From the NCBI GenBank assembly GCA_964533855.1, contig CAZHNM010000011.1, forward strand, positions 6,293-70,292: 64,000 nt of DNA, in the 5' to 3' direction. Each line of letters opens with the position of its first letter. The first letter of the stretch is position 1. Positions 2,325-53,248 of this stretch are shown one piece after another. The stretch is from an uncultured Brevinematales bacterium. GTDB lineage: Bacteria; Spirochaetota; Brevinematia; Brevinematales; JAOACQ01. The notes under the pieces were generated by a model. The model did no database searches. It worked only from the letters and a program-made list of their open reading frames with translations, and was not told the origin of the DNA. A program made the translations under genes and the position numbers.

Positions 2325-2639
2325 ATGCTAAACGGAAGATATTGGTTAATATTTTTATTTTTATTTTTTTTCAGTTGCGGTTATTCAACAGGTCAACTGA
2401 TTTTTACGAATACATACATGTATGAAAAGCCGGATGACGGTTCAAAGATCGTTGCATCGATAAAACCCGGCACAATAGCAGACTCAAAGGGACCGATCCT
2501 TGCATCGGGAAGTAATCCGGAAGGCTGGCAGAAAATTTCATCGGCAGGTAAAACGGGATGGTGTCATGCGGAGAGTTTGCTCTCAGATCAGATCGATATA
2601 AACGATTTTACGTACGGGAAAAAGCTCGCCGGAATATAG
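2325..2639 (+). CDS. Putative lipoprotein with a bacterial SH3-like domain
   Basis: Signal/lipobox-like N-terminus (LIFLFLFFFSCG). SH3b-like ending (GWQKISSAGKTGWCHAESL). Starts 6 nt after the hgcB stop. Confidence 0.5.
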   Translation: MLNGRYWLIFLFLFFFSCGYSTGQLIFTNTYMYEKPDDGSKIVASIKPGTIADSKGPILASGSNPEGWQKISSAGKTGWCHAESLLSDQIDINDFTYGKKLAGI

Positions 2640-3298
2640 CCAGGCTGTCGATAAAAAAAACCTTAATCAGTGTCCTTTACGATGTCAGCAAGTATTCAGG
2701 AAACCCCTCTGGTTACGCCAAACAATACATCTACATGATCAGGGATGACGGTAGACTTGCCCTGATGAAAGATTTCATCTCCCAATATTATCATTTTGGA
2801 GTGCCGAACTTCGAATTTAATAAAATGTCCTGGCCGGAAACTGATATCATAGATATTTCCTACGGCTTCCAGAGGACAGGCGGATTGGCACACAACGGAG
2901 ACGGCGGCCTTATCCTGGAATATAAACTGGATAAAACAGGGATGGAATTTTTCTTATCTGATGTAAAAAGCAATATAAAAGACTCCGAAAGCAACACAGT
3001 CATCACAAACAGGGAGTCCCTTGTGGAAATTTTCCCTGAATTATCGGATATCTCGAATAAGTGCACCCGGATGAACACCTTTAAAACGAATGCGACATGC
3101 TATGTCTCTGCGCCGTCCGGCCTATATCTCCGAAAATCACCGGAGACAGGCGATAATAAAATATTCCTGATCCCTTTCAATTCGATAGTTATTATAACCG
3201 GAAAGAGCTATAACATTTATACTAACGATGGTATAACAAACTACTGGTACAGGGTTAATTATCACGGCCGGGAAGGCTGGACATTCGGGGGATATTAA
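2558..3298 (+). CDS. Hypothetical protein with a C-terminal SH3b-like domain (start uncertain)
   Basis: C-terminal NYWYRVNYHGREGWTFGGY. The first 82 nt overlap the preceding ORF in another frame. The next in-frame ATG is at 2735, so either the start is internal or the two ORFs are one frameshifted gene. Confidence 0.45.
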   Translation: MVSCGEFALRSDRYKRFYVREKARRNIARLSIKKTLISVLYDVSKYSGNPSGYAKQYIYMIRDDGRLALMKDFISQYYHFGVPNFEFNKMSWPETDIIDISYGFQRTGGLAHNGDGGLILEYKLDKTGMEFFLSDVKSNIKDSESNTVITNRESLVEIFPELSDISNKCTRMNTFKTNATCYVSAPSGLYLRKSPETGDNKIFLIPFNSIVIITGKSYNIYTNDGITNYWYRVNYHGREGWTFGGY

Positions 3299-3387
3299 AA
3301 GAAGAGCTATAACCTTGAATTTATTTTCATCGTTCCTTACAACATTCAGGTGTGTTATTTCAGGCTTATTGAAACCCGGAAAGTCAG

Positions 3388-3407
3388 CAGGCATTGCCTG
3401 ATTTTTT
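3388..3407 (+). terminator. Weak hairpin terminator
   Basis: caggc-att-gcctg stem-loop (3388-3400), followed by a T6 run (3402-3407). Confidence 0.4.
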
Positions 3408-3482
3408 GTGTTTATTCATCCTTTTGAATAAAATAATTGAATATTTTCCATTGATAATAAAATAAGTTCATAGGATGATTTA

Positions 3483-4217
3483 ATGATAGAAAAAAATTAT
3501 TGGCTTTCCGATGCCGGCAAAGACCAGATTGCTTTTTATTTAGAGGAATCGGATGAATTTTTAGTGGAAAGAAAAACCGCTCTGGAATTGATGTTATCGA
3601 TAGCAGGCTGGAATTTTAAAGGAAGGAATAATCTAAAGCTTTTAGATCTTGGCTGCGGAAGTGGCGTAGTTTCTAAAATATTTGCATCAGTCAACCCGGA
3701 ATTTCATTTTACTCTATTAGATGGATCGCAGGATATGCTTGAAGCCGCGGCAAAGAATATGAAGAGTTTTCATTGTGACTATATTCAAACATCCTTTGAG
3801 AAATGGATAGCCGAAGATGCGAACGATCAGAGTTTTGATTTTATTTATTCTGGTATGGCCATTCATCACTTAGATTATACACAAAAACAGCTTCTCTATG
3901 GACGTGTTTATAGGGAACTTCAATTTGGCGGACTATTCCTCAATTATGATGTGGTATTGCCTGCATCCGAACAGTCGGAAAAATGGCAGTTCCAGATGTG
4001 GCGGGACTGGATTAACAATAATATAGAAAAACTCGGGAAATCCGAATTTATTGGTAAACACAATAATATGCCGGAAGAAACTTATAAAATGAAAGCGGAA
4101 AACAAACCTTCCCTATTAAGGGACAATCTAGATATGCTTGAAAAATCAGGGTTTCGTGATGTGGATGTATTCATGAAACATGGGATTTTCGTTTTATACG
4201 GCGGGACAAAACCCTGA
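3483..4217 (+). CDS. Class I SAM-dependent methyltransferase
   Basis: Motif I LLDLGCGSGVVS plus post-I/II pattern (FDFIYSGMAIHHL). 244 aa, TGA stop. Confidence 0.8.
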   Translation: MIEKNYWLSDAGKDQIAFYLEESDEFLVERKTALELMLSIAGWNFKGRNNLKLLDLGCGSGVVSKIFASVNPEFHFTLLDGSQDMLEAAAKNMKSFHCDYIQTSFEKWIAEDANDQSFDFIYSGMAIHHLDYTQKQLLYGRVYRELQFGGLFLNYDVVLPASEQSEKWQFQMWRDWINNNIEKLGKSEFIGKHNNMPEETYKMKAENKPSLLRDNLDMLEKSGFRDVDVFMKHGIFVLYGGTKP

Positions 4218-4266
4218 AACCCTGAATCCTTGGCAATTCTAACACCAACCTGCTCCCCGGTCCATC

Positions 4267-5064
4267 TCATGTGGTCAGACTGTCGACATAGGCGAAGACC
4301 CGATCTTGGTCGGCTTCAACACGAGCCCCGCGAGAGGGTATTGCTGATTTTCGGCCCACCGTCTGATAGAGCGCTGTGCCGGGATCCATGATTACGGCTG
4401 CAAGTGAAGCTCCCGCTGCTTGGGTGCTTTGGAATACCGTAGCCCTGAGTAATTTCAGGATCCAGGAGGGAACTTGGTTGGCGGGAACGACCATCTTCGG
4501 ATGAAAAGCCCGGACCAGGATGCCGTCGGAAGCCCATCTTCGCGCCATGGATAGTGTGAACATTAGAAAGGCCCGCTTGGCCTGAGGGTAGTCAGCCTGG
4601 TTAAGAGAGCCGGTCTCCAGGGCGGCAACGGCAAATTCCCCCCTGGACTCTCCAATTGAGCTTGTATTCACAACCACTGCTCCTGGCGGCAGGACTGGAC
4701 GTAGCCTGAGGCAAATCTGTGCCGGTGCCAGGAAGTTGACTCTCCGGTTCAGAGACCGGCCTTCTGCATCGGCCTGCTTCGAGGGGAATACCGCTCCTGC
4801 GTTATTGACCAGGGCGTCCACCCGGGGATATCGTGCCTTTACCGTTTCAACAAAGTTTTGGGTTGACTCCGGATTGGACAGATCCCCCGGGATCAGATCG
4901 ACTTTGAGGCCGGGATGCTCCCCGGCGAGCCTATTAGCCAGACTCATGCCCCGTTCGGGGGTCCTGACCATCAGGACGAGAGTATCGGCGGAAGCCGCCA
5001 GATATCGGGCTGCCTCCAATCCGAAACCATGAGTAGCGCCAGTCATTACGATCGTAGGTTTCAT
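4267..5064 (-). CDS. Short-chain dehydrogenase/reductase (SDR) family oxidoreductase
   Basis: N-terminal Rossmann motif TGATHGFGLEAARYL, NNAG motif (LVNNAGAV) and YxxxK-like YPQAK. Markedly GC-richer than both flanks. Confidence 0.85.
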   Translation of the reverse strand: MKPTIVMTGATHGFGLEAARYLAASADTLVLMVRTPERGMSLANRLAGEHPGLKVDLIPGDLSNPESTQNFVETVKARYPRVDALVNNAGAVFPSKQADAEGRSLNRRVNFLAPAQICLRLRPVLPPGAVVVNTSSIGESRGEFAVAALETGSLNQADYPQAKRAFLMFTLSMARRWASDGILVRAFHPKMVVPANQVPSWILKLLRATVFQSTQAAGASLAAVIMDPGTALYQTVGRKSAIPSRGARVEADQDRVFAYVDSLTT

Positions 5065-5135
5065 ACCATACCCCGTTCAGAATTTTAGTAGCGAGCAAAT
5101 TTTTAGCTAAAATATAGCTTAAAAGGAGCTTGGGA

Positions 5136-5306
5136 ATGGGTCAAAGAAATAGTGCAAAAAGAAAGGCAGAATTGGTATTAAGAGTTCTTCGTGGTGAATC
5201 TCTTGAAGAAGTTAGTCGCTCAGAAAATGTCACAATCGCTGATTTAACCGAGTGGCGGGAATCCTGTAAAGGGGAATCAGCGCGGAGTATCTTTAGACAG
5301 CGTTGA
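5136..5306 (+). mobile_element. Remnant of an IS3-family OrfA-type transposase HTH (56-aa ORF, no catalytic part)
   Basis: ORF found by hand and absent from the track (<60 aa). AAGGAG RBS at 5123-5128, ATG 5136. The peptide MGQRNSAKRKAELVLRVLRGESLEEVSRSENVTIADLTEWRE matches the IS3 OrfA pattern (K..valeaLRGE.t..ELa...gV....i..W). No OrfB/DDE part follows. Confidence 0.4.
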
Positions 5307-33081: not shown

Positions 33082-33582
33082 ATGAAAAGGTTATTGTCCG
33101 CTATGTTTTTAGTTGCATTTCTTTTTGGTATCGCAGGATCTTTCTACGGCATTCTGAACAGCGACAGTTCTCCCTTGATCCCCAATCCAAGCATACCTGC
33201 CGCCGCTCCGATAATTACCGTTCCCGTGCTTGATACCTCTTTAGGATTGGTAGGCCTTTCATATCTTCCTAATGTGAATGGAAGTCCTCAATTTTTCCCC
33301 AATTTCGGGCCTTTCTTCAGGTTATCCAGGAACTTTATCGGTTACCAGCAGTCGGACGGTAGCTGGAAATCTTATGTCGATATCGGGTGTATATTATTTG
33401 CCGACGGAACATCAAATCCGGCTATAAGCCAGGATACCATATACAATCTGGGCGCGGGTATCGGACTGGGCTTCCTTGACGATGCCGTTACGGTTTCCTT
33501 CGCTTTTATCTGGCTTTTTAATGGAAGCGTCAATATTCCCGCTTATTCTATTATCATAACCAGCACAGCATATAAATTTTAG
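33082..33582 (+). CDS. Small secreted, possibly outer-membrane beta-barrel-like protein
   Basis: Signal peptide MKRLLSAMFLVAFLFGIAGSFYG (internal ATG 33082). Alternating hydrophobic pattern and a C-terminal aromatic residue (TSTAYKF). Confidence 0.45.
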   Translation: MKRLLSAMFLVAFLFGIAGSFYGILNSDSSPLIPNPSIPAAAPIITVPVLDTSLGLVGLSYLPNVNGSPQFFPNFGPFFRLSRNFIGYQQSDGSWKSYVDIGCILFADGTSNPAISQDTIYNLGAGIGLGFLDDAVTVSFAFIWLFNGSVNIPAYSIIITSTAYKF

Positions 33583-33596
33583 CGGGGGGGTGAAAT

Positions 33597-34472
33597 ATGT
33601 TCGGATCCGTAATTCTTGAAATCGCGATCGGGGTAATTTTTATTTATCTGGCGCTAAGCCTGCTCTGCACTGCTATTAACGAAGGAATATCGGGCTTCTT
33701 TTCAATGAGGTCCAGGACTTTAAGCATTTGGCTGGAGAATTTTCTGGGCGACAGAGATTTAATTGCTAATTTCTACAATAACCCGCTTATCAGAAACCTT
33801 GTGCAAAAACCCGGCAAAAAACCGTCCTATATCCCTTCGAGTATCTTTTCGGCGACAATTTTAGATAATATCCTTAAAGTATATACCACGATTCCCGGCG
33901 TTACAGCCGACCTGGTAAATGCAATCGCAACATCTCCCATTCCTCAGAATCTTAAAGATACTCTTAGCACGCTTGCCAGGACCGCCGAGAATAAAATCGA
34001 AAACCTTAAAACAAGCCTTGAAAAATATTTCGACGACGCAATGGACAGGGTTTCAGGCTGGTATAAAAGGTATGTGAATAATATCATACTTGCAATTTCA
34101 ATAGTTATTTGCGGATCGATGAATATCGATACGATCGATATGGTAAAGGAACTAAGCAGCAATTCTAATATGCGCATTGCCTTATCGAGTTATGCGGTCC
34201 AGTCAGTGAGTACGGTGACAAATCAAAGCCAGGCTGTCGGACCGGTTTTGGATGTAATAAACGGCGTTGTTACAAATACTCAAATTCCATTCGGCTGGAA
34301 TAATTTATCAGCTGAAATACCGGCTAGATCGAACAATGAATGCTGGCTCTGGATTGAAAAAATTCTAGGCATCATCGTTTCGGCGATTGCCGTTTCGTTA
34401 GGCTCGCCGTTCTGGTTCAATATGCTGGAGCAGGCGATCAAATTAGCCGGTATCGAACCTAAAAAGGCTTAA
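33597..34472 (+). CDS. Integral membrane protein of unknown function
   Basis: 291 aa. N-terminal TM (VILEIAIGVIFIYLALSLLCTAI), central TM (IILAISIVICGSM) and C-terminal TM (ILGIIVSAIAVSLGSPFWF). GGGGG-rich RBS region upstream. Confidence 0.55.
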   Translation: MFGSVILEIAIGVIFIYLALSLLCTAINEGISGFFSMRSRTLSIWLENFLGDRDLIANFYNNPLIRNLVQKPGKKPSYIPSSIFSATILDNILKVYTTIPGVTADLVNAIATSPIPQNLKDTLSTLARTAENKIENLKTSLEKYFDDAMDRVSGWYKRYVNNIILAISIVICGSMNIDTIDMVKELSSNSNMRIALSSYAVQSVSTVTNQSQAVGPVLDVINGVVTNTQIPFGWNNLSAEIPARSNNECWLWIEKILGIIVSAIAVSLGSPFWFNMLEQAIKLAGIEPKKA

Positions 34473-34491
34473 AAAGACATAAGGAGTTTTT

Positions 34492-34578
34492 ATGCCGGAA
34501 ATTAAATTCTGGACTCTGAACGCCTCGGCACGGTGCATGACTGGCGGAACGGGTAATTTGTATAACCCTCAAAAGTAA
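34492..34578 (+). CDS. Candidate 28-aa small ORF (MPEIKFWTLNASARCMTGGTGNLYNPQK)
   Basis: Found by hand. Strong TAAGGAG RBS (34480-86) lies 5 nt before ATG 34492, 19 nt after the preceding stop. There is no homology evidence. Confidence 0.25.
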   Translation: MPEIKFWTLNASARCMTGGTGNLYNPQK

Positions 34579-34666
34579 AACAAGTTACAATTCTGATGAT
34601 CAAACACCGAAAATAACTTAGGGTAAGAGCAACCGCGGTCCTTTTTGAAATTACCCCGAGGGCATT

Positions 34667-35602
34667 TTGCAAAATATTATCCTCTTTTATTACATTTTAG
34701 CTTTTTCGATAGGTGTAGCCTCGATGCTTTTTGTCATGGTCGCCTGGATGAAATTTAAAAATTCCGTTTTAAAATATTATTTTATTTTTCTTCTTCTGTT
34801 CACGGTTTATCTCGTTATTAACCTTGTCAGGATTTATATAACTGAAATCTTGAATGAAAAAGAAATATGGATTAATATTTTTTCTTTTTCGGTATACTTC
34901 ATCTGGTATCCTTTCTTCCTTTACTTTGTTCCATACTTCTTCCATAAGCTGACCGAAGTTGATTATTCCGCGGCTAAAAAGGCCGCTTTTGCCGTCCTTG
35001 GGATCAGCTATCCTTTAATGCTGATTACGGCATTTTTAATCGGGAAAAATCCTGAGAACATCTATAGTATTATGAGGTTTGAAATGCGGACCACCGGCGG
35101 TATTCTTATCCTTTTTATAATCGCTTATATTACCATATTTATGATAAGAAGTTATATCCGCCTGGAAAACGAGATGGTAAAGAAAATACTAAAAATTTTC
35201 GCATTAATTACAATCGTTTTTATTCCCGGTTTTATCCTCGATTCAAAAATCGATTATTTCCAGTATCAGATAAAGATTTTTCCCGTCGGTTTTTTCTTTT
35301 CAGTAATCTATTATCTGGTCTTGAATGTAATCAGCATTTTCCTGCTCGCAAGGTATTTTTTATTAAAGATCAATCTTCTGGAAAACAAGCTCATAACCGA
35401 TAAATTTATTTCTAAATTTTCTATAACGGTAAGGGAAAAAGAGATCATGCTCCTCCTGATGGAAGGCTGTACTTATGATCAAATCAGCGCTAAATTATTC
35501 ATAGCGGTATCGACTGTTAAAAGCCATATCCATAATGTTTATCAAAAAACAGGCTCAAAGACCAAGACGCAATTCAAACAAATCATCTCGGGTGAATTCT
35601 GA
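34667..35602 (+). CDS. Membrane-embedded (about 7 TM) LuxR/FixJ-type HTH transcriptional regulator
   Basis: C-terminal LuxR-type HTH (TVREKEIMLLLMEGCTYDQISAKLFIAVSTVKSHIHNVYQKTGS), preceded by about 240 aa of hydrophobic helices. TTG start in the track. Confidence 0.75.
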   Translation: MQNIILFYYILAFSIGVASMLFVMVAWMKFKNSVLKYYFIFLLLFTVYLVINLVRIYITEILNEKEIWINIFSFSVYFIWYPFFLYFVPYFFHKLTEVDYSAAKKAAFAVLGISYPLMLITAFLIGKNPENIYSIMRFEMRTTGGILILFIIAYITIFMIRSYIRLENEMVKKILKIFALITIVFIPGFILDSKIDYFQYQIKIFPVGFFFSVIYYLVLNVISIFLLARYFLLKINLLENKLITDKFISKFSITVREKEIMLLLMEGCTYDQISAKLFIAVSTVKSHIHNVYQKTGSKTKTQFKQIISGEF

Positions 35603-35659
35603 AAAACTATTGATCCAAAACCATTAACTTTTCCTCAATCTATTGCAGCTGATGACATT

Positions 35660-35711
35660 GGGAAAATCCAACTTTTTGGTGGATTTACAATCATGCCGCC
35701 GCTTCCATAAT
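35660..35711 (+). promoter_or_regulatory. Promoter plus operator-like inverted repeat (copy 2 of the shared element)
   Basis: AAATCC (35664-69)-N11-GGATTT (35681-86) overlaps TTTACA (35684-89). 16-nt spacer, then CATAAT (35706-11). Partial third copy at 35721-30 (tttacaatca) and 35735-46 (gggaaaaatcca). Confidence 0.55.
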
Positions 35712-35791
35712 ATGATGCTTTTTACAATCAGGTCGGGAAAAATCCAGGAAAACCTGCTTGAAAAGTCAGCTGAAAATCGGAGGCCAATATT

Positions 35792-35941
35792 ATGAAAAGA
35801 CAAAAAAAAGCAGCGGTTGTCAGAGAAGGTTTTATGAAATCCGGACTTCTTAAAGAAGTCTCTTTCGGAAAAATTTTAGAGCCGATGAGTTTCTGTGTAA
35901 AATCCATAAATAAGAGAGTATTTCCCGTTCATCTCGGTTAA
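35792..35941 (+). CDS. Candidate 49-aa small ORF abutting the next gene
   Basis: Found by hand. GGAGG (35779-83) lies 8 nt before ATG 35792. Stop TAA at 35939-41 is immediately followed by ATG 35942. The peptide is basic: MKRQKKAAVVREGFMKSGLLKEV... Confidence 0.35.
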   Translation: MKRQKKAAVVREGFMKSGLLKEVSFGKILEPMSFCVKSINKRVFPVHLG

Positions 35942-37117
35942 ATGGTTAAGGAAAGGACCAATCCCTTTAAAATTCCTGGAATCCTTCCCAATTTCCTGTT
36001 TGAATTGAAAAAAAGTTTTATAAGTCTGATTTTGAGAAAATTAATATTTATTTACGGATTATTTTATTATTTAGTCTATAAAATGAAAACATTCCCGGTT
36101 ATTAAAACGCCGATCCAGTTTCCCATTGAAAAAATAATATATTTCTCTTTAATCCGGAATATGATGGGCACTATTCTCGGAGAAGGGGAAACAAAGGATA
36201 GCATAAAAAGAATGTGCGGGGTTTTCCTTTATTATCAAATTATTGAAAATAGCCTTTTAGACCTTGGAATCTACTGCCCTATATTATTCCTTAAATATAT
36301 CTTTTTTGTCTACCCCGAAAAAAAGCGCATGCTTTTGTCTCCGGGGTCCGGCAGGAAAACATTTTTATTTCATAATTTTATAGGCTCGAAATTCGGAGTC
36401 ATTTTACAAATTATTTCTTTTGCCGAAAAAGGGGAAAACGCATTGGTGCTTGTAGACACCGCGGCTCTATCTTCAGCGAGAATGATCTTAGAGAAGGTAT
36501 GCCCCGATGCGATCATATACGGCAATGGAAGAATCGATTTACGGATGGGATATTTCAGAAATTATATAAAAAACGACGATTGCTCGAAATCTATCATAAC
36601 CTTTATAGATATCCGGGATATCGGGAATTACCGGATCATTTTAAAAAAATTGAAAGAGCCGTCTTTTAATTGCGTTCTAATTCCCGAAACTCCCCTGCTG
36701 CGGCCGTCTCAAAACTTTTTTTCGGACCTTCTTGGAGCGCAAATAGCTTTTCCCGGCGCCATAAAAAAATTCATCCGGTTTTCCGATTCGATCGTTTCAA
36801 TAATCCCGGATTTCGGGAAAGGGCTGAATAATATTCAATTTCACTCTGAAATCGTAGAAAGATTTCATGATGATGAGACTGTCCTGAATCATATCGTGAA
36901 AAATTATGAAAGATTCGTTTTCATCAAGCCATATTTATTCATACCGTTTGAATATAATGAAATCTGGAAAGGACTTTTCAGCAGTCAAAATCTCGATAAG
37001 GATACCGTTGTCCAAACCCTGGTATGGGGGAAGAAGTGCCTTCTGTTATTATCGGACGGTAAAATGTTTTCCTGCCTGAAGAAAGACCTGAAATCCATCC
37101 TGAATTCCAATAGCTGA
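35942..37117 (+). CDS. Hypothetical protein (N-terminal hydrophobic region, AT-rich gene)
   Basis: 391-aa ORF with no competing long ORF. N-terminal TM-like segment (LIFIYGLFYYLVY). No recognisable motif. Confidence 0.5.
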   Translation: MVKERTNPFKIPGILPNFLFELKKSFISLILRKLIFIYGLFYYLVYKMKTFPVIKTPIQFPIEKIIYFSLIRNMMGTILGEGETKDSIKRMCGVFLYYQIIENSLLDLGIYCPILFLKYIFFVYPEKKRMLLSPGSGRKTFLFHNFIGSKFGVILQIISFAEKGENALVLVDTAALSSARMILEKVCPDAIIYGNGRIDLRMGYFRNYIKNDDCSKSIITFIDIRDIGNYRIILKKLKEPSFNCVLIPETPLLRPSQNFFSDLLGAQIAFPGAIKKFIRFSDSIVSIIPDFGKGLNNIQFHSEIVERFHDDETVLNHIVKNYERFVFIKPYLFIPFEYNEIWKGLFSSQNLDKDTVVQTLVWGKKCLLLLSDGKMFSCLKKDLKSILNSNS

Positions 37118-37146
37118 TAAAAATCTTTGTTTAAAAGAGGCTGCAA

Positions 37147-37875
37147 ATGGACGGTAAAACTTTGAAAGTGCTGATATACACACAATCGGACACCTTTGCC
37201 GATGCGCTATTTCATATGGGAATAACTTTATACCGTTCAAAAAATCCCGGTGACCTGATAGATAAAATTCAGAAGTATTTTCCTGAAATAGTCGTTTTAG
37301 ATTTCACTAATGAAGATTCTACTGCCACATTTAAATTAGTTAATCAAATAAAAGACCACCCCGATGAAAAAATCAAAAAAACGGCGATCATTCTTCTCTT
37401 CGGATCTATCGATATCGGGAATATTTCTTCGGCAATTCAGGCCGGCGTAGCAGGTTTTATAAAAATTAATGCCGCGGCAGATCTTATATATGATTATATT
37501 ACGACTCTTTATCAAAAGGTCAGGGATGTTCCGCCCGAAAGAAAATATGTCAGGATTCAAATCGACCCTAAAGAGAGGATCGGCGTCAGATTCTGGTCCC
37601 CGGTAAATTTAATTCTTATTGTAGGACGGATTAAAGATATAAGCTTCGGCGGGATCGCGGTGGAATTAGTCGGGACATATCCCGCGGATTCATTGGCAAT
37701 AGGGACAGAATTAAAATCAATGCAGTTTGTTTTAGACGGAAAATATGTATTTATCGATGGGGTAGTGGCGGCCTGCCTGGAAAAATTTTGCGCCATACAA
37801 TTCAGGGACATAACTCCGGAAATAAAGGAAATAATTTCCCGGTATATTTTTGAAAAAATATGCCTTTACGTATAA
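37147..37875 (+). CDS. Receiver-like domain fused to a PilZ (c-di-GMP-binding) domain
   Basis: N-terminal CheY-like pattern (LKVLIYTQSD...EIVVLDFTNED...). C-terminal PilZ motifs RKYVRIQ (RxxxR) and GRIKDISFGGIAV (D/NxSxxG). Confidence 0.7.
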   Translation: MDGKTLKVLIYTQSDTFADALFHMGITLYRSKNPGDLIDKIQKYFPEIVVLDFTNEDSTATFKLVNQIKDHPDEKIKKTAIILLFGSIDIGNISSAIQAGVAGFIKINAAADLIYDYITTLYQKVRDVPPERKYVRIQIDPKERIGVRFWSPVNLILIVGRIKDISFGGIAVELVGTYPADSLAIGTELKSMQFVLDGKYVFIDGVVAACLEKFCAIQFRDITPEIKEIISRYIFEKICLYV

Positions 37876-37906
37876 GCGGAAGGCTGGTTGCAGAGCTTTA
37901 AAAGTG

Positions 37907-46472: not shown

Positions 46473-48167
46473 ATGTTTAAAAAGCCTGACTTCAGGAAAT
46501 TGACGCCTTACGCCATTGTCTGCGCGATGGCCCTGCTCGCCTGCATTGTCCCAGCGCTCCGTAACAGGTGGCCCGATAACCATGACGGCGACGCCGTATT
46601 TAAAAGCGTTACTGTATTCAAGGATATGGTTTTCCGTTTCCATGAATATTTCCCGGCCTGGACCGCCTACGGCAGCTACGGTCTGGGCTCTCCGATGCCC
46701 TTTTTTTACCATCACGTCTATTTTTACATTGCTTCATCCATAGACCTGATTTTCAATGATGTTATCGTTTCAGTTAAAATTTCGATATTTCTGCTTTTGA
46801 CAGCGGGCGGCACGGCTGTTTACATGACCGTGAAAAAGCTTTTTAACAGGACCTTCTACGGCATTGTCGCGGCAGGCCTTTTTATCTTCTCGAGTTATAC
46901 TTATACCCAGTGGCTTATAAGGGGAGCTTATGCCGAATTAACTGCTTCCGTTGTATTTGTCTGGATTCTGTTTATTTTCTCGAGGATCGGATCCAGATTC
47001 GCCTCCATCGATTTCCTGACCGCCGGGATCCTCTTTTCCATTTTACTCTATTCTCATAACCTGATCTTCCTCTTTGCACTTTTCTCCTTTGCCGTTTTTT
47101 TAGCAGTCCATATAAAAGAATGCCTCAGGGCCCCTTTTAAGCCCCTGCTTTCAGCCGTTTTCCCCGTAATTACTATCCTTCCTTATATTTTTCCGTACAT
47201 CGCCTTAAAAGGCCTCTTCGATATGGATCATCCGATTATGGCTTTTAAAATTAAAGATTCTTTTATCGAAATATACAGGTACTTTTTCGATAATCATTAC
47301 AACATGGGAGAGACATGGCTGAACCTTTCCCCCGAGATCGGGAGGTTCTTTTTCCTGCCCCTTGTTGTCCTCATTATAATATTCCTGGTCAGGAAGAGGC
47401 GCCTCCTGCCCGATCCGCCTGAAAGCGGAAATGAAATTCCTGTAAAAAAATACATGATCTTTGTTTTTATTATGCTTGTCTTTTACATTTTCCTCCAGCT
47501 TCCCGCTTCAATACCCTTTTATTACAGCTTCGTTTATTTCAAGTATCTGCAGTTTCCCTGGCGTCTTTTATGCATGATAACACCCCTGGCAATCATCCTT
47601 TTTATTTATTACTCGCACGCATCTGCCGCTCTTTTCAAAAAAATAAACGGTAAAAAAGCCGTAGATGCGGGCCTGGCCTTGATACTCCTTGTACAGGCAG
47701 TCTGGGTCGGCGGAAATTATCAGTTTTACAGGTACAGGGCGTTTTCCTCGGAAGAGCTGCATAAAAGGGTTTCAAGGGAGAACCTGGTTGCCAACTTCTA
47801 CTGGGGAGAATATATGCCTCCCGGATTCAGGCAGAAGAATATTTCGTCGCTTCTTGAAAACAGGGGCCTGAAAGTTATTTCATCGAGCGATCCCGGCCTC
47901 TTCTCGGAAATACGGGAATTCGATAAAATACATATAGAGCTCGCGCCGGGCGATGGGAAAGGGACTATCGTTCTTAACCAGATACGCAGCCCGTTCATAA
48001 CCCTGAAGTATTCCTCAAATATCAGCGTCTCAAACGGAGATTACCAGGAGGCCGTTTTTCACCAGGCCGGCGACGGGAAGCCCTCTTATATCGACATAGC
48101 AAAAACCTCACTTATCGGGCTTGACGCTTACTGCATCGGAGAAGAACTTGTGAAAGCGGGATTATAA
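46473..48167 (+). CDS. Large polytopic membrane protein, possibly GT-C-like, with a C-terminal soluble domain
   Basis: TM1, then the loop WPDNHDGDAVFKSVTVF. About 12 TM helices. The C-terminal about 170 aa are soluble. Transcribed divergently from the minus-strand GT-C operon. Confidence 0.55.
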   Translation: MFKKPDFRKLTPYAIVCAMALLACIVPALRNRWPDNHDGDAVFKSVTVFKDMVFRFHEYFPAWTAYGSYGLGSPMPFFYHHVYFYIASSIDLIFNDVIVSVKISIFLLLTAGGTAVYMTVKKLFNRTFYGIVAAGLFIFSSYTYTQWLIRGAYAELTASVVFVWILFIFSRIGSRFASIDFLTAGILFSILLYSHNLIFLFALFSFAVFLAVHIKECLRAPFKPLLSAVFPVITILPYIFPYIALKGLFDMDHPIMAFKIKDSFIEIYRYFFDNHYNMGETWLNLSPEIGRFFFLPLVVLIIIFLVRKRRLLPDPPESGNEIPVKKYMIFVFIMLVFYIFLQLPASIPFYYSFVYFKYLQFPWRLLCMITPLAIILFIYYSHASAALFKKINGKKAVDAGLALILLVQAVWVGGNYQFYRYRAFSSEELHKRVSRENLVANFYWGEYMPPGFRQKNISSLLENRGLKVISSSDPGLFSEIREFDKIHIELAPGDGKGTIVLNQIRSPFITLKYSSNISVSNGDYQEAVFHQAGDGKPSYIDIAKTSLIGLDAYCIGEELVKAGL

Positions 48168-48268
48168 TATCACCACGGCTCAATTATTATTATGGGGCGA
48201 TAGGAGGTGGACTATTTGGAGGAGCGTTCGGAGCATTTGCGGGCGCCGAGGCGGCGGCCGGGAATTTA

Positions 48269-49096
48269 GTGGCTGAATACGGGCTTTTGATTTGCGGTGG
48301 AGGCGGTGATATATATGTTACAGCGGATACTGTCAACCAGATGTTAAACAACGGTAATGGTGCTGCAGGCTTGTACCCTGAAGGCGGTTCTGGTCCCGGA
48401 GGGGACGAAGAGGGGAATAGCTCGGATCCCTCATTTGACGAATACACACAGCAGCAAGCATTGCAAGAGAGAATTGATGAAAAGGCGGAGGCAGGAGCTG
48501 AAGAAGATATGAACCAAATGAGCTTACAATATGTCGAATATGTCTATATGCAAAGCCATGCGCCGGATACATTACAGATGTTGAATAATTTAAAGGATTG
48601 CGGTACTAATTATTCTTCTACTGTAGATGGTATAAACTTTATCTTTCCTAAAAAAGAATTTAGCCCACCAGGTTCGACATTAACTCCTAGTCAGCCGACT
48701 CCTATCGATCAGGCTATTGAAAATTTAAATCCGCAAGCTCTTGACCTTTTGATAGATATGGCGACTCAAAATAATATATCGGATATAGAGATATCTAGTA
48801 TGTGGAGAAATGATCCCAAGAAATATGGAACTGATGACCCGCACAATGACGGTTATAGTGTTGATGTTTTAGCGGTGTGGTCAACCGGTACTCGATACTC
48901 TTTCAATAATCTTGCAAGCGATAATACTTTTCAAAATGGAATATATAATTGGCTTCAACCAAATTCCAGTGAACTTTTAGATCCATGGCAAATGTATTAT
49001 GGAAGCGGTAATCCTGTACCTAATTATAATAGAACACAAGTTGAAAAAGATCACCAATCCCATTTTCATATAACAGGTTGGATTCTATTATGGTGA
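48269..49096 (+). CDS. Putative LAS/M15-type zinc peptidase (peptidoglycan hydrolase-like) with a Gly-zipper N-terminal extension; start unresolved
   Basis: HNDGYSVD fits the M15 metal motif HxxGxAxD (A->S), and KDHQSHFHITG fits the terminal (D/E)xxH / HxH motif. The in-frame upstream sequence (from about 48191) encodes GAIGGGLFGGAFGAFAGAEAAAG but has no in-frame ATG. The track start is a GTG. Confidence 0.45.
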   Translation: MAEYGLLICGGGGDIYVTADTVNQMLNNGNGAAGLYPEGGSGPGGDEEGNSSDPSFDEYTQQQALQERIDEKAEAGAEEDMNQMSLQYVEYVYMQSHAPDTLQMLNNLKDCGTNYSSTVDGINFIFPKKEFSPPGSTLTPSQPTPIDQAIENLNPQALDLLIDMATQNNISDIEISSMWRNDPKKYGTDDPHNDGYSVDVLAVWSTGTRYSFNNLASDNTFQNGIYNWLQPNSSELLDPWQMYYGSGNPVPNYNRTQVEKDHQSHFHITGWILLW

Positions 49097-49123
49097 CAAG
49101 TATAATTTAATTAGGAGTTTTCA

Positions 49124-49963
49124 ATGTATAGATTTTTTTCATGTTTGACTATCATTAATATGTTTTTGTTTAGTGAATTATTTGCAAAAAGCTACAATTT
49201 TACTCTAACCTTAGAAAAAGATGTGAGTGTTTATCCAGCACCTGAATTTAGCCCGTCAAATTTAATAAAAATGGAAATTGGGCATATTATTATGATTATC
49301 TCTAATTCATTTAAACAGGTAACATTAAGCAACAAGACCGGCAATTGGTTGTTCATTGATGCTGGTTATTATAATAGCGGTGAGAATACTACAATAAAGG
49401 GGTGGGTGCCGAGTTTTTATATAGCGGAAAAGAAGGATTTTAAAAAAGTAACTAAATTTGGAGAATATGAACTTGAAGGCTGGGTTGGAGATTACAGATT
49501 TGATTACAAATTTAACAAAGATGGAACAGTTATAGATACATTGTATAAAGAGGGGATTTATGAAGCGACTATAAAATGTAATCTTTATTGTAAAGATAAA
49601 GTTTTATTTGTTGAAGTTCAATATAAAGGTGATGATTCATTTCAAATATTCTATTTAAACGAAACGGGTGATTTATTCCTTCAAGAAATGCCCATCAAAG
49701 CCAAACGCATCGATGTTGTACCTTTATTGAATACTAATAATTTATTCTATTCGATAACAGGTGACAATGTAAATGTGCGCGCGGATGCCTCGGTAGATGG
49801 CAAAATATTAACCCTGTTATCGAAAGGTGCACGAGTGAAGTTGATCAAGAGGTCAGATATAGAACTCTATATCGGTGATAAGAAGGGTCATTGGGCATAT
49901 ATAGAAACCGGTGTGATCAAGGGATGGGTCTTTGATTATTATCTCAAGGAAGAAGGGAATTAA
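49124..49963 (+). CDS. Secreted protein with a C-terminal bacterial SH3 domain
   Basis: Signal-like N-terminus (FFSCLTIINMFLFSELFA). C-terminal SH3b pattern (VNVRADASVDGKILTLLSKGARVKLIKRS...GHWAYIETGVIKGWVFDYYL). AGGAG RBS. Very AT-rich. Confidence 0.6.
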   Translation: MYRFFSCLTIINMFLFSELFAKSYNFTLTLEKDVSVYPAPEFSPSNLIKMEIGHIIMIISNSFKQVTLSNKTGNWLFIDAGYYNSGENTTIKGWVPSFYIAEKKDFKKVTKFGEYELEGWVGDYRFDYKFNKDGTVIDTLYKEGIYEATIKCNLYCKDKVLFVEVQYKGDDSFQIFYLNETGDLFLQEMPIKAKRIDVVPLLNTNNLFYSITGDNVNVRADASVDGKILTLLSKGARVKLIKRSDIELYIGDKKGHWAYIETGVIKGWVFDYYLKEEGN

Positions 49964-50265
49964 TTTAGTACTAATGTTAGAGTAAATTATTCTTTGTTCT
50001 GGTAGAATTTAAATTAAGGTCAAAAAATGATAACTTCTTGTAATGAGTTTCACCGGGACAGGTAATAAGGACAGGTTTGAGTATTGCCCCGAATGCGGAA
50101 AGGAATATTCGGCGGAATCGGCGATTCCTCCGAGGGTTAAACTGATAAATCGAAGATCCGGATGGCAAAACTTAATAGAAAATAATTAATGATATTTTAA
50201 TAAAAATGCACAGTGAATAAATAATTTCGATTAAATTAGTTGAAATTTTAATACAGGAGTTAAAT

Positions 50266-50757
50266 ATGAAGAAAAACTTTTTGTTTGCCGGAGTCATTAT
50301 CGCAATGTTATCAGGTTTTGCCTCAACAGGTTTCGGCGCTGCATGGACCCAGTGGATGAATTTTAATGGATGTGGAGGTCAGGGTAATGAAACTAATCCG
50401 GTTCAGTATGATTATTATTCTATTAATTATGATGTTAATTTAAAAAGTGCGTATATCGAAGTCGATTATTATGGCGGCAACGCTTCATCAGATACAGGCG
50501 GCTCTCAATCACGGACTTATAGACTGTATGAGAATACAAATCCAAAGTTATTTTCATATGTAAATAATATCCTCATGCTATGTTTGAATTCTGTTAACCA
50601 GATCGCTGAACCTGCCGCAAATAATGATGCTGATAATGATTCAGGATATATGTATTTTAGTTTTTTTACTGAAACAACTAATTCCACAGGAGGAGACGGC
50701 GTTTCTTACCGGGCTATACTGGGTATCAAGACAGGATCATTGAGACAGAAAAGTTAA
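50266..50757 (+). CDS. Secreted hypothetical protein
   Basis: Signal peptide MKKNFLFAGVIIAMLSGFASTGFGAA. AGGAG RBS at 50254-58. No recognisable domain. Confidence 0.45.
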   Translation: MKKNFLFAGVIIAMLSGFASTGFGAAWTQWMNFNGCGGQGNETNPVQYDYYSINYDVNLKSAYIEVDYYGGNASSDTGGSQSRTYRLYENTNPKLFSYVNNILMLCLNSVNQIAEPAANNDADNDSGYMYFSFFTETTNSTGGDGVSYRAILGIKTGSLRQKS

Positions 50758-50882
50758 ATGATGTGGAAAAAGGTGCATATTGCCGGTCTGTCTGATTGCC
50801 CCGTTGCTTGTCAGATTATCATATTTGATTTAAAATAAATCCTGTTTATCAAATTATAGAAGAATTGCAGGATTTAAGAAAT

Positions 50883-51842
50883 ATGAATAAAACCTTTAAA
50901 CTCTCGGTTATTGTTCCCGTCTATAACGAGGAAAAAAATATACCCGTCCTGCTCGAACGGCTTAAAAAAGTCATAGATACGATAGGCTGCGGTTATGAAA
51001 TAATATTTTCGATGGACCCATGCAAAGACAGGACCGGGGAATTGATTCTTGAAGCCAGGAAAAAGGACAATAATATAAAACTGATCAGGATGTCCCGGCG
51101 TTTCGGACAGCCTGCCAGCACGATAGCCGGGATACATTACTGCACGGGCGACGCCTGCGTCGTGATCGACGCGGACCTGCAGGACCCTCCCGAACTGATA
51201 AAAGATATGGTGGAGAAGTGGAAAGAGGGGTACCATGTCGTATATGCCCAGAGGAAAAGCAGGAAGGGAGAGACCTTCATCAAGAGGATCGTCGCATTTC
51301 TCGGGTATAAAATAATAAACAGGATCTCCGATGTCAATATTCCCAGGAACACCGGGGATTTCCGCCTGATGAGCAGGGAAGTGATAGACAACCTGAAGCT
51401 TTTGAAGGAAAACGACGCCTTCTTGAGGGGCCTTGTCGGCTACATCGGCTTCAACCAGATAGGCATACAATATGAAAGGGATTCGAGGCTCAGCGGAAAG
51501 GGCAAGTATAACAGGTTTTTCGGCTCCCTTAAAATAGGCCTGAACGGAATCCTCAGCTTTTCGAAATATCCCCTGGACCTTATATCGATCTCAGGCGTCA
51601 TAATCGCATGCTTGAGCTTTCTGCTCGGGATTTTTTACATAGTTTTCAGCCTGATGCATATCAGAATACCATGGGGTAATCCCACCCTCGTCATTTTAAT
51701 ATCGTTTTACAGCGGAATCCAGCTTTTGAGCCTGGGAATCATCGGGCAGTATCTCGCGAGAATGTTCGACGAGGTCAAAGGCAGGCCCGTCTTTATAGTC
51801 CAGGAAGCCCATGGATTTGAAATCAAAAATATTAATAAGTAA
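50883..51842 (+). CDS. Family-2 glycosyltransferase, polyprenyl-phosphate sugar synthase type (GtrB/ArnC/DPM1-like)
   Basis: LSVIVPVYNEEKNI, VIDADLQDPPELI (DxD...QDPP) and two C-terminal TM helices, as in GtrB/ArnC. ATG 50883 is preferred over the TTG at 50865. Confidence 0.85.
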   Translation: MNKTFKLSVIVPVYNEEKNIPVLLERLKKVIDTIGCGYEIIFSMDPCKDRTGELILEARKKDNNIKLIRMSRRFGQPASTIAGIHYCTGDACVVIDADLQDPPELIKDMVEKWKEGYHVVYAQRKSRKGETFIKRIVAFLGYKIINRISDVNIPRNTGDFRLMSREVIDNLKLLKENDAFLRGLVGYIGFNQIGIQYERDSRLSGKGKYNRFFGSLKIGLNGILSFSKYPLDLISISGVIIACLSFLLGIFYIVFSLMHIRIPWGNPTLVILISFYSGIQLLSLGIIGQYLARMFDEVKGRPVFIVQEAHGFEIKNINK

Positions 51843-51854
51843 CCCGCGGGTATT

Positions 51855-52298
51855 ATGAGAAAGAGATTATGGACATATTTAAAGGAATTATACTTTAAAA
51901 TAGAAATTTTTAAAAAAATAAAATTTTTATCGATAGGCGGCACGACCTATTTATTGAACATGTCCGCCGTTTATTTAACGCATGAAATTTTAAGGCTTGA
52001 CAGCAACACGTCTTTTACGATTTCGTATGTTATCGGGCTGATCTATCATTTTACACTCAACAAGATTTTTGTTTTCCAGGAAAAGAAATTATCGCGGCTT
52101 AAATACCAGATAATACAATATTTAATACTGTCCCTTATAAATTACCTGATCCAGCTTGGCGTCCTTAACCTTTTCCTCCTGCTGAAAGTCAGTATTTATA
52201 TAGGCGTTTCCGCAGGAATTGCGCTGACATTGACATTGACATATTTTATAATGAACAGTCTGATCTTCAAAAAAAACAAGGAATTGGAGTTAAAATGA
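51855..52298 (+). CDS. GtrA-family small membrane protein (putative polyprenyl-P-sugar flippase)
   Basis: 147 aa with 4 TM helices. KFLSIGGTTYLLNMSAVYLTHEIL pattern. Located directly after the GtrB-like GT2. ATGA overlap with the next gene. Confidence 0.7.
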   Translation: MRKRLWTYLKELYFKIEIFKKIKFLSIGGTTYLLNMSAVYLTHEILRLDSNTSFTISYVIGLIYHFTLNKIFVFQEKKLSRLKYQIIQYLILSLINYLIQLGVLNLFLLLKVSIYIGVSAGIALTLTLTYFIMNSLIFKKNKELELK

Positions 52299-53248
52299 AA
52301 TATTTTGTCACCGGCGGAGCCGGGTTTATCGGAAGCAGCATCACGGACAGGCTTCTTGCAGACGGCCACTCTGTGAGCGTTTACGATAATTTTTCCACGG
52401 GTCTCCCCGAGTTTTTAGTAAAAGCGAAAGAGAGCGGCAGTTTCAGGCTCTTCGATGGCGACCTGTTAGACCCCGAAAAGCTGTCCGGGGCGATGGAGGG
52501 TTGCGATTTTGTAATACATTTTGCGGCAAACGCGGACGTAAGGTTCGGGACCGAGCATCCGGGGAAAGACCTTAACCAGAACATCATAGCGACTTTTAAC
52601 GTCCTGGAGGCCATGAGGAAGAACGGCATCGGGAAAATCGCGTTTTCCTCCACGGGGTCCATATACGGCGAATCGAAGACGATTCCGACCCCTGAGAACG
52701 CACCTTTTCCTGTCCAGACATCCCTTTACGGAGCTTCCAAATTGTCGGGAGAGGGCCTGATACAGGCTTACTGCGAGGGTTTCGGATATAAAGCCTGGAT
52801 ATTCAGGTTCGTATCAATCCTCGGGGAAAGGTACACTCATGGCCATATTTTCGATTTTTACAGGATGCTGCTGAAAAATCCAGCCGAACTGAAAGTCCTC
52901 GGGAACGGCAGGCAGAGGAAATCATATTTATACATCCAGGACTGCATCGACGCGATCTTTTTCGCGCTTGAAAAAGCTGATGAAAAGGTTAATATTTTCA
53001 ATCTTGGGACCAACGAATACTGCGAGGTCAACAATTCGATCGGCTGGATATCTGAAAATCTCGGCCTTTCCCCCGAGCTCAAATATACGGGAGAAGACCG
53101 TGGCTGGATCGGGGATAATCCTTTTATATTCCTCGATTGCTCTAAAATCAACAAACTCGGCTGGACCCCGAAATTAACCATAAAGGAAGCCGTTATTAAG
53201 ACCCTCGAATATTTGAAGGAAAATAAATGGGTCCTGGAAAGGAGATAA
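52295..53248 (+). CDS. NAD-dependent epimerase/dehydratase (extended SDR)
   Basis: VTGGAGFIGSSI Rossmann motif, catalytic YGASKLSGE (YxxxK). 317 aa. Confidence 0.85.
   Translation: MKYFVTGGAGFIGSSITDRLLADGHSVSVYDNFSTGLPEFLVKAKESGSFRLFDGDLLDPEKLSGAMEGCDFVIHFAANADVRFGTEHPGKDLNQNIIATFNVLEAMRKNGIGKIAFSSTGSIYGESKTIPTPENAPFPVQTSLYGASKLSGEGLIQAYCEGFGYKAWIFRFVSILGERYTHGHIFDFYRMLLKNPAELKVLGNGRQRKSYLYIQDCIDAIFFALEKADEKVNIFNLGTNEYCEVNNSIGWISENLGLSPELKYTGEDRGWIGDNPFIFLDCSKINKLGWTPKLTIKEAVIKTLEYLKENKWVLERR

Follow-up and report, generated by a model that had tools for sequence, protein, structure and literature searches.

An orphan polymorphic-toxin cassette, with LAS/M15-like motifs and a candidate immunity gene, probably lies inserted in a glycan locus of an uncultured Brevinematales bacterium

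Polymorphic toxin systems, as catalogued in 2012 by Zhang, Aravind et al. (PMC3482391), carry a toxin domain at the C-terminus of RHS or PT-HINT proteins, followed downstream by a small gene that co-varies with it, and they also occur as stand-alone cassettes that have no delivery region and sit in arrays or in mobile contexts. We report here on a block of 2.7 kb in a 64,000-nucleotide stretch of DNA from an uncultured Brevinematales bacterium (GenBank assembly GCA_964533855.1, contig CAZHNM010000011.1, positions 6,293 to 70,292; hereafter the window), whose first open reading frame, ORF1, ends in a domain of this kind, and whose second, ORF2, encodes a candidate immunity protein. The family to which the pair belongs resembles the described systems on both counts; the copy in the window departs from them in having neither a delivery domain nor a start codon, and in standing alone within a glycan locus.

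Orphan modules that lack a delivery region, rhs-CT/rhsI and cdiA-CT/cdiI, are reportedly found in Enterobacteria, and are said to have been described by Poole et al. in 2011 and by Koskiniemi et al. in 2014. Classical orphans adjoin a full-length rhs or cdiA gene, downstream of it, and retain a stretch of the core for recombination. The cassette in the window is like them in that the toxin tip comes without initiation signals and the immunity gene with its own; it is unlike them in that there is no rhs gene, and no recognisable core remnant, in the 64 kb.

The second point of comparison is the LAS group of peptidases, which includes M15, VanY and the N-terminal domain of Hedgehog. With its M15 members, such as the T5 L-alanyl-D-glutamate endopeptidase and VanY/VanX, the toxin domain of ORF1 shares the series R...H-x2-G-x3-D...W...H at nearly equal spacing, and with the Hedgehog and M15A types a terminal H-x-H. 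The loop from the arginine to the histidine is 12 residues shorter than in the T5 endolysin, and there is an extra N-terminal beta-hairpin/helix unit; contrary to the LAS peptidases, the domain has a third conserved histidine (H174-x2-H177-x-H179), and no sequence, profile or Foldseek match to them is significant. That a wall peptidase of LAS type should serve as a weapon is a known idea, since surveys of type VI secretion systems (T6SS) predict such effectors: WHIX effectors are predicted to be “Peptidase M15-like” and “MepA-like” (PMC12135965), and M15 domains occur in Neisseria T6SS toxin loci (PMC10210955). If ORF1 is a peptidase, the likeness to these predicted peptidoglycan-hydrolase effectors, which go with periplasmic immunity proteins, would be that a wall peptidase of LAS type is turned against other bacteria and has the gene for immunity next to its own. 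The differences lie in the scaffold, here a Sec-exported RHS or PT-HINT protein of Spirochaetota with no T6SS marker seen in the window, in the sequence family, and in an immunity protein made of SH3b-type domains. The terms VanY, M15 and LAS are absent from the 2012 catalogue, as far as the available part of its text goes (PMC3482391).

Our reading of the block, to which we give a probability of about 0.7, is that it is a horizontally acquired polymorphic-toxin cassette whose toxin gene is an orphan, probably silent, and whose expressed immunity gene has been retained. The argument begins with the toxin domain, the last 187 or so amino acids of ORF1 (48533-49096, forward strand). Searched as a single sequence, ORF1 has no match in Pfam, PHROGs, NCBIfam or the PDB sequences, and a word-indexed search of 5.8 billion proteins returns only itself. 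An exhaustive HMMER (phmmer) scan of its last 209 residues against 1.84 billion cluster representatives returned 22 proteins, three of them low-complexity artefacts and about 18 of them true relatives. The alignment of this family, A1, holds 18 sequences; its profile finds three proteins only in the word-indexed search, the profile and the family consensus find nothing relevant among PDB sequences, and the consensus has no match in PHROGs or NCBIfam.

The columns of A1 single out a small set of residues. D111, P151, H177 and H179 do not vary at all, and at least 90% of the sequences share R92, H104, G107, N164 and H174; the motifs H-x6-D (H104, D111) and H-x-H (H177, H179), both of metal-binding type, are conserved, as is DPW. 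In the window, and on the forward strand, the codons concerned are R92 at 48806-48808, H104 at 48842-48844, D111 at 48863-48865, P151-W152 at 48983-48988, H174 at 49052-49054, H177 at 49061-49063 and H179 at 49067-49069.

Every true relative carries the domain at its very C-terminal end, and the larger relatives tell what it is attached to. P0002 (1104 amino acids, 47% identical to ORF1 over 126 amino acids) is an RHS protein (RHS_repeat, E 7e-31); P0022 (3655 amino acids) is an RHS protein with an N-terminal signal peptide, a DUF6531 domain and a YD shell, and carries the toxin domain at its C-terminus; P0004 (621 amino acids) carries it behind the end of an RHS core; and P0016, a partial protein of 279 amino acids from a metagenome-assembled genome (MAG) of Leptospiraceae, has it after a PT-HINT domain. 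The remaining relatives are short ORFs without a delivery region. Because the domain is found at RHS or PT-HINT C-termini or in start-less cassettes, we identify the C-terminal domain of ORF1, by homology, as a polymorphic-toxin C-terminal domain. The original prediction had taken the layout for that of a toxin or lysin with a partner gene, and had pointed to polymorphic-toxin loci as a place to look for homologues; RHS and PT-HINT toxins are indeed where they were found. All relatives with a nameable source belong to the Spirochaetota (Brevinematales, Leptospiraceae).

The correspondence extends upstream of the toxin domain. In P0022 and P0004, the end of the RHS core (DPxG) leads directly into hydrophobic segments rich in Gly, and the glycine zipper of ORF1 has the same relative position; it gives a weak match, consistent in position, to residues 3084-3172 of P0022 (E 0.026, in a tiny database). 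From these comparisons, ORF1 looks like a complete tip, made of zipper, linker and toxin, severed exactly at the junction of core and tip. The closest full-length relative, P0002, lies in a 2.74-Mb contig of a Spirochaetota MAG (locus L003, 6001-9933), where it begins directly in RHS repeats, just past an insertion-sequence (rve) gene, and its N-terminus seems to have been truncated by the transposon. The toxin tip of P0002 and its immunity gene are AT-rich, with a GC content of 0.30 against 0.42 for the locus.

The second line of evidence is the partner. ORF2 (49124-49963, forward strand, 279 amino acids) starts 27 nucleotides downstream of ORF1, with an AGGAG ribosome-binding site at 49112-49116 on the same strand, 7 nucleotides ahead of its ATG. 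From its N-terminus, which is hydrophobic and signal-like, it passes through an SH3b-like domain and a beta-rich one in the centre to an SH3_3 domain (PF08239) at the C-terminal end, residues 214-275 (49763-49948), which scores 34.7 bits (E 2e-8) against a gathering cut-off of 27; a signal-peptide protein ending in an SH3b domain is what had been predicted. SH3_3 is present in five of the six aligned members of the ORF2 family, with a best E of 7.8e-16; the family core consists of the N-terminal SH3b-like domain and the beta-rich middle, to which ORF2 and its counterparts in loci L010, L012 and L013 add one or two C-terminal SH3_3 domains. A structure prediction from the single ORF2 sequence is unusable (pLDDT 35).

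We compared the gene directly downstream of the toxin domain with ORF2 in eight other loci. In seven of them it is an ORF2 homologue, each with a signal-like N-terminus: 46% identical to ORF2 (E 8e-51) after P0002 (L003), 40% identical after P0003 (L011), homologous after P0009 (L010), P0007 (L012) and P0012 (L013), homologous with E 2e-15 after P0020 (L005), and weakly homologous after P0022 (L009). For P0002, P0003, P0009, P0022 and P0020, in that order, the identity of the toxin to the window copy in A1 is 44, 34, 32, 30 and 25%, and that of the partner to ORF2 is 47, 42, 33, 20 and 28%: toxins and partners are ranked almost alike, so the two genes travel together. In systems of this kind the established rule is that the partner encoded downstream confers immunity. 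Adjacency in seven of the eight loci makes ORF2 the candidate cognate immunity protein, one of the two roles, immunity or accessory, that the original prediction had offered; its function would be to bind and block the toxin. Since the presumed immunity protein is secreted, the toxin is expected to act outside the cytoplasm, in the periplasm. The middle domain of ORF2 (residues 99-194) also has a sub-threshold Pfam match (E 0.014) to BPTA, the “persistence in ticks” protein A of Borrelia, a possible sign that toxin-immunity proteins are remotely connected to a family of spirochete surface proteins.

The block that holds the pair is an insertion. It spans 48168-50864 (2697 bp), from the end of a GT-C-type membrane glycosyltransferase gene, whose stop is at 48167, to a GT2 glycosyltransferase gene, both host genes on the forward strand. 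The left one (46473-48167), whose GC content at third codon positions (GC3) is 0.54, has orthologues 57-59% identical in Spirochaetota and Brevinematales MAGs, the search with its protein having given three relatives; the right one (50883-51842) matches Glycos_transf_2 with E 1.5e-31, and a GtrA gene (51855-52298, GtrA E 1.7e-14) comes after it. In the corresponding locus of a Brevinematales MAG (L007), the GT-C gene (2422-4110) and the GT2 gene (4257-5198) are separated by a gap of 146 bp and the island is absent. The genes GT-C, GT2, GtrA, epimerase, SDR and GFO follow each other in the same order in this MAG and in the window, the island aside, with identities of 59, 82, 65, 81, 68 and 74% respectively.

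The composition of the block is also foreign. Its GC content is 0.364, against 0.462 for the whole window, and just 2% of the 2.7-kb windows in the 64 kb are as GC-poor; the minimum over all such windows, 0.352, begins at 48401. GC3 is 0.33 in ORF1 (0.27 in its C-terminal domain), 0.31 in ORF2 and 0.305 in a third gene, ORF3, against 0.54-0.62 in the flanking genes. The first 350 bp or so are not AT-rich (GC 0.52), because of the Gly and Ala codons of ORF1. The AT-rich island had first been noticed from hand counts of GC, which turn out to be exact (16/60 at 48601-48660, 13/60 at 49141-49200 and 39/60 at 51121-51180), and the scan agrees with them (36.4% against 46.2%). Absence from a syntenic relative and foreign composition together support horizontal acquisition: conservation of the island in place, with host-like composition, would have refuted the original prediction, and the syntenic relative is without the block. 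No flanking direct or inverted repeat, integrase or tRNA was seen at the ends of the island, and promoter and terminator signals there do not exceed chance.

The third element of the argument is the state of ORF1 itself. It is an open frame of 324 codons (48125-49096, forward strand), a length that would be free of stops by chance, at its composition, with a probability of about 5e-12. Its translation contains YYYGAIGGGLFGGAFGAFAGAEAAAGN, in which four GxxxG units stand in register, and further on PHNDGYSVDV and DHQSHFHI; the two motifs on which the original prediction relied, HNDGYSVD and DHQSHFH, are therefore present, the former within the stretch SSMWRNDPKKYGTDDPHNDGYSVDV. The glycine-zipper hydrophobic segment that had been noticed upstream of the called start is GAIGGGLFGGAFGAFAGA, at 48194-48247, and a linker rich in Gly, Glu and Gln (48248-48532), for which no homologues were found, leads from it to the toxin domain, all on the forward strand. 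The frame has no in-frame ATG, as had been observed, and moreover no GTG or TTG upstream of GTG 48269, the codon at which the JGI annotation starts a “hypothetical protein” of 275 amino acids (P0001). The ATG at 48192 opens an out-of-frame mini-ORF of three codons, ATGGGGCGATAG (48192-48203, forward strand), read directly in the sequence: it runs into the G4 run at 48194-48197, where one added G would give MGAIGGG, just as the original prediction had said. An AGGAG-type ribosome-binding site stands ahead of the ATGs of ORF2 and ORF3; there is none upstream of ATG 48192, nor near GTG 48269.

It had been suggested, on this basis, that one G is missing from the run, an idea that we do not favour. 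The window is part of a JGI metagenome contig of 117.9 kb, and another contig, of 1393 bp and from a sibling sample (L002), is identical to window positions 48171-49563 with 0 mismatches, G4 included, which makes a single assembly error at the G run unlikely, and we rejected a sequencing error on the strength of this second assembly; besides, no ribosome-binding site precedes the ATG, and there are start-less cassettes among the other members of the family. For a start-less ORF1, an orphan cassette is a better explanation than a fault of sequencing or a plain frameshift. A further contig, from a MAG at NCBI named “Brevinematales bacterium” (GCA_049510425.1; L014, 4415 bp), is identical to window positions 48266-52680, and the three island proteins are recorded at NCBI from that MAG. 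The first of these two independent contigs begins 3 nucleotides past the GT-C stop and the second inside the zipper and linker, both near the left edge of the island. This could reflect variation within the population in the presence of the island, or repeated sequence ahead of the toxin, or chance; the break at 48266 is a possible hint that the zipper and linker are repeated elsewhere in the genome, and is equally compatible with chance.

Delivery regions, whether of RHS, HINT or another type, are absent from the whole 64-kb window, and ORF1 is not fused to one. Since the window copy lacks both such a region and a usable start codon, we file it as an orphan cassette and not as a complete toxin. 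Other members are found in a similar state, P0003, P0009 and P0007 being likewise without a delivery region: P0003, flanked by integrase and group II intron genes, has a non-ATG start call in a frame that stays open for another 62 codons upstream, and P0009 and P0007 lie in cassette arrays beside transposase fragments and NADase_transloc toxins. The last two come from a single complete genome of 2.5 Mb, CP073355.1, which has two pairs of toxin and SH3b partner, at about 1.64 Mb (L010) and 2.17 Mb (L012); their surroundings are typical polymorphic-toxin arrays, in which several cassettes carry NADase_transloc. In the window, the intact frame of 324 codons and the presence of every conserved residue indicate that the cassette is recent or has been kept under selection.

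Several observations weigh against this account of the block. The evidence from synteny comes from one relative only, and in the eighth of the loci compared (L004) the gene downstream of P0016 encodes an unrelated lipoprotein. Contrary to the classical orphan picture, neither a full-length rhs gene nor any remains of an RHS core adjoin the cassette in the 64-kb window, so that the way in which orphans usually come to be expressed, by recombining with an rhs gene next to them, is not visible here. Lastly, the intact toxin frame could also be that of a toxin with some unconventional mode of expression.

What the toxin domain does is a separate question. The original prediction saw in it a peptidase of M15 type, and the conserved residues agree with that view. 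As a control, we used an alignment of the T5 endolysin family (A2; Pfam Peptidase_M15_4), whose query is 96% identical to a real endolysin, and whose invariant residues include R42, H66, D73, W114, D130 and H133. The landmarks of ORF1 are P67, R92, H104, D111, W152 and H179, separated by 25, 12, 7, 41 and 27 residues; those of the T5 endolysin family are P18, R42, H66, D73, W114 and H133, separated by 24, 24, 7, 41 and 19. The two series are co-linear and their spacing is almost alike. When the family consensus is compared with 24,736 Pfam models, the sole near-hits over the H..G..D motif are Peptidase_M15_4 and Extensin-like_C, both of which we take to be members of the LAS clan (Pfam clan Peptidase_MD). 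The sole alignment that hhalign makes between A1 and A2 puts H104..D111 on the T5 zinc ligands H66..D73, and a relaxed alignment makes the whole domain co-linear, with H179 on H133. AlphaFold2, given the 18-sequence alignment, models the domain with a pLDDT of 91.1 and a pTM of 0.88, in the order helix-helix-strand(SxxR)-[His]-strand(Asp)-strand-helix-strand-strand(HxH), presumably the same order of helices and strands as in the solved structure of the T5 endolysin. Among structural matches in BFVD, nine of the ten best have probabilities of 0.89-0.99 and the tenth 0.84, and the five that are named (Lysozyme, Tape measure protein, Peptidoglycan binding-like and LT_GEWL being the names) are all phage cell-wall-lytic proteins, virion lysin-type proteins or proteins with a peptidoglycan-binding domain.

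Against this stands the fact that no statistical test of the similarity to LAS/M15 reaches significance. The Pfam near-hits score 13.9 bits (E 0.085, cut-off 25) for Peptidase_M15_4 and 13.3 bits (E 0.09, cut-off 25.4) for Extensin-like_C; the hhalign match of A1 to A2 has an E of 0.074 and a probability of 0.8%; Foldseek against the PDB gives no LAS structure among the matches listed, the best having an E of 0.15 and the folds being unrelated; and the E values of the BFVD matches, 0.014-0.15, do not reach significance. The M15 likeness is thus a resemblance drawn from conserved motifs and co-linear landmarks, not a demonstrated membership. Of the original claim, the conserved histidine/aspartate/histidine set has stood, to which the arginine, the HxH and the co-linear landmarks are now added, and similarity at the level of hidden Markov models, profiles and structures has stayed under threshold. 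We consider it probable, about as much so as the cassette reading itself, that the toxin works as a LAS peptidase, but we do not assign it to M15.

The toxin-immunity pair might also be genuine and its toxin domain not of LAS type, being a new fold or another enzyme in which the His and Asp motifs have arisen by chance. A model with a pLDDT of 91 that has no significant Foldseek match in the PDB would be expected in that case, as would the failure of every sequence and profile test against M15. We hold this to be unlikely, however, in view of the five co-linear landmarks spaced almost identically to those of the T5 endolysin family, of sub-threshold Pfam matches that go only to two families presumed to be of the LAS clan, of BFVD matches that go to phage cell-wall enzymes, and of an immunity protein that is secreted. 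A more adventurous version, in which a new toxin fold and an immunity class built of SH3b domains are combined, perhaps, with a -1 slip of ribosome or polymerase at ATGGGG that yields toxin in rare cells, we regard as improbable, and more so than the plain non-LAS alternative. The slip has a simpler setting, in which ORF1 is a functional stand-alone toxin or bacteriocin, expressed by -1 slippage on G4, by phase variation through one added G, or from GTG 48269; in the first variant the tRNA-Gly would slip by -1 on G4 from ATG 48192, giving MGAIGGG, and insertion of the protein into the membrane, or its passage through it, would be the task of the zipper. ATG 48192 heads the zipper exactly, a slip on GGGG leaves the pairing perfect, a stop follows the first three codons of the zero frame, the 324-codon frame and its conserved residues are intact, and ORF2 is 27 nucleotides downstream, as expected of an immunity gene. 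Yet a run of four G is short for slipped-strand phase variation or for efficient slippage, no stimulatory element was identified, the ATG lacks the AGGAG site that ORF2 and ORF3 have, the G4 is the same in the second assembly, and other members too are start-less cassettes: there is perhaps some chance of a stand-alone toxin, and we rate it a minor one.

Two further explanations do without an interbacterial toxin, and we rejected both. Its position inside a glycan locus, and the common role of SH3b domains in binding cell walls, could suggest that ORF1 is a housekeeping enzyme of cell-wall remodelling, with ORF2 as its SH3b targeting partner in the service of that locus; the block is nevertheless missing from the syntenic relative and foreign in composition, other copies of the domain belong to RHS or PT-HINT toxins or to mobile arrays of cassettes, and ORF1 has neither a start codon nor a signal peptide, which makes this very improbable. 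The remnant of a prophage lysis cassette, with an endolysin and an accessory protein, would account for the weak BFVD matches to phage lytic proteins and for a weak PHROG “amidase” match on the SH3 part of ORF2 (E 0.0055). It is just as hard to believe: ORF1 itself has no PHROG match, tblastn against 50,697 phage records and 72,556 plasmids gives nothing, there is no holin, integrase or other phage gene nearby, and the homologues are RHS or PT-HINT toxins; synteny and composition speak against it as they do against the wall enzyme. An acquired cassette with an orphan toxin tip is thus the reading that we retain.

On that reading, and by analogy with known systems, a Sec-exported RHS or PT-HINT protein would, in the full-length relatives, deliver the tip into a neighbouring cell and release it there. 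The toxin domain would then act as a zinc peptidase of LAS type that cuts peptidoglycan peptides in the periplasm of the target, with H104, D111 and H179 as putative metal ligands, and with R92 and H174/H177 possibly assisting catalysis. ORF2, with its own strong ribosome-binding site and signal peptide, is predicted to bind the toxin in the periplasm as cognate immunity protein. In the window, ORF1 would be silent, or at most a reservoir for recombination, and ORF2 would be the part in use, shielding the cell from relatives that fire the toxin.

Assuming that the pair is indeed a toxin and its immunity protein, it adds two families to the catalogue of bacterial-warfare cassettes. Pfam has no model for either of them, the toxin or the partner family; the toxin sequence family, which accounts for about 18 of 1.84 billion cluster representatives, is undescribed, as is an immunity family built of SH3b domains, and a start-less copy so oddly placed in a glycan locus is also new. 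To our knowledge, interbacterial antagonism has been little studied in Spirochaetota. If the peptidase reading is true, zinc peptidases of M15/Hedgehog type would be linked to RHS-delivered toxins, and the toxin-immunity pair is small enough for structural study. The window copy is also a reminder that such a cassette can arrive without a start codon and in the midst of surface-glycan genes, where annotation, in this case, resorted to an arbitrary GTG and to the words “hypothetical protein”.

The rest of the block holds one further gene and one doubtful one. ORF3 (50266-50757, forward strand, GC3 0.305) encodes 163 amino acids with a signal-like N-terminus, MKKNFLFAGVIIAMLSGFASTGFGAAW, and has an AGGAG ahead of its ATG; it has no match in Pfam, PHROGs or NCBIfam and is absent beside the toxin pairs of the other loci. 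Between ORF2 and ORF3, an ORF of 48 amino acids (50043-50189, forward strand) has a CPxCG motif like that of a zinc ribbon, with Pfam zinc-ribbon matches below threshold (E 0.004). It lies in a patch of the island that is locally richer in GC, and its peptide bears a weak resemblance to what the complementary strand of the same ORF would encode, and a weak and unconvincing one to a stretch of locus L004; as an RNA element, the region has no Rfam match and a fold z-score of -0.37. We consider it doubtful that this is a real gene.

Elsewhere in the window, upstream of the glycan genes, a second block of low GC content occupies 33300-37900, with values of 0.37-0.38 in 2.7-kb windows and a GC3 of 0.38-0.46. 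It encodes a regulator of LuxR/GerE type (34667-35602), a PilZ-domain protein (37147-37875) and unannotated proteins, and it may be another acquired segment. Between 38353 and 48167 lie five or six large multi-pass membrane proteins, encoded on both strands and either weakly PMT_2/GT-C-like or without a Pfam match, together with two GT2-GtrA units: this glycan locus is unusually rich in GT-C genes, and its gene order varies among three related MAGs.

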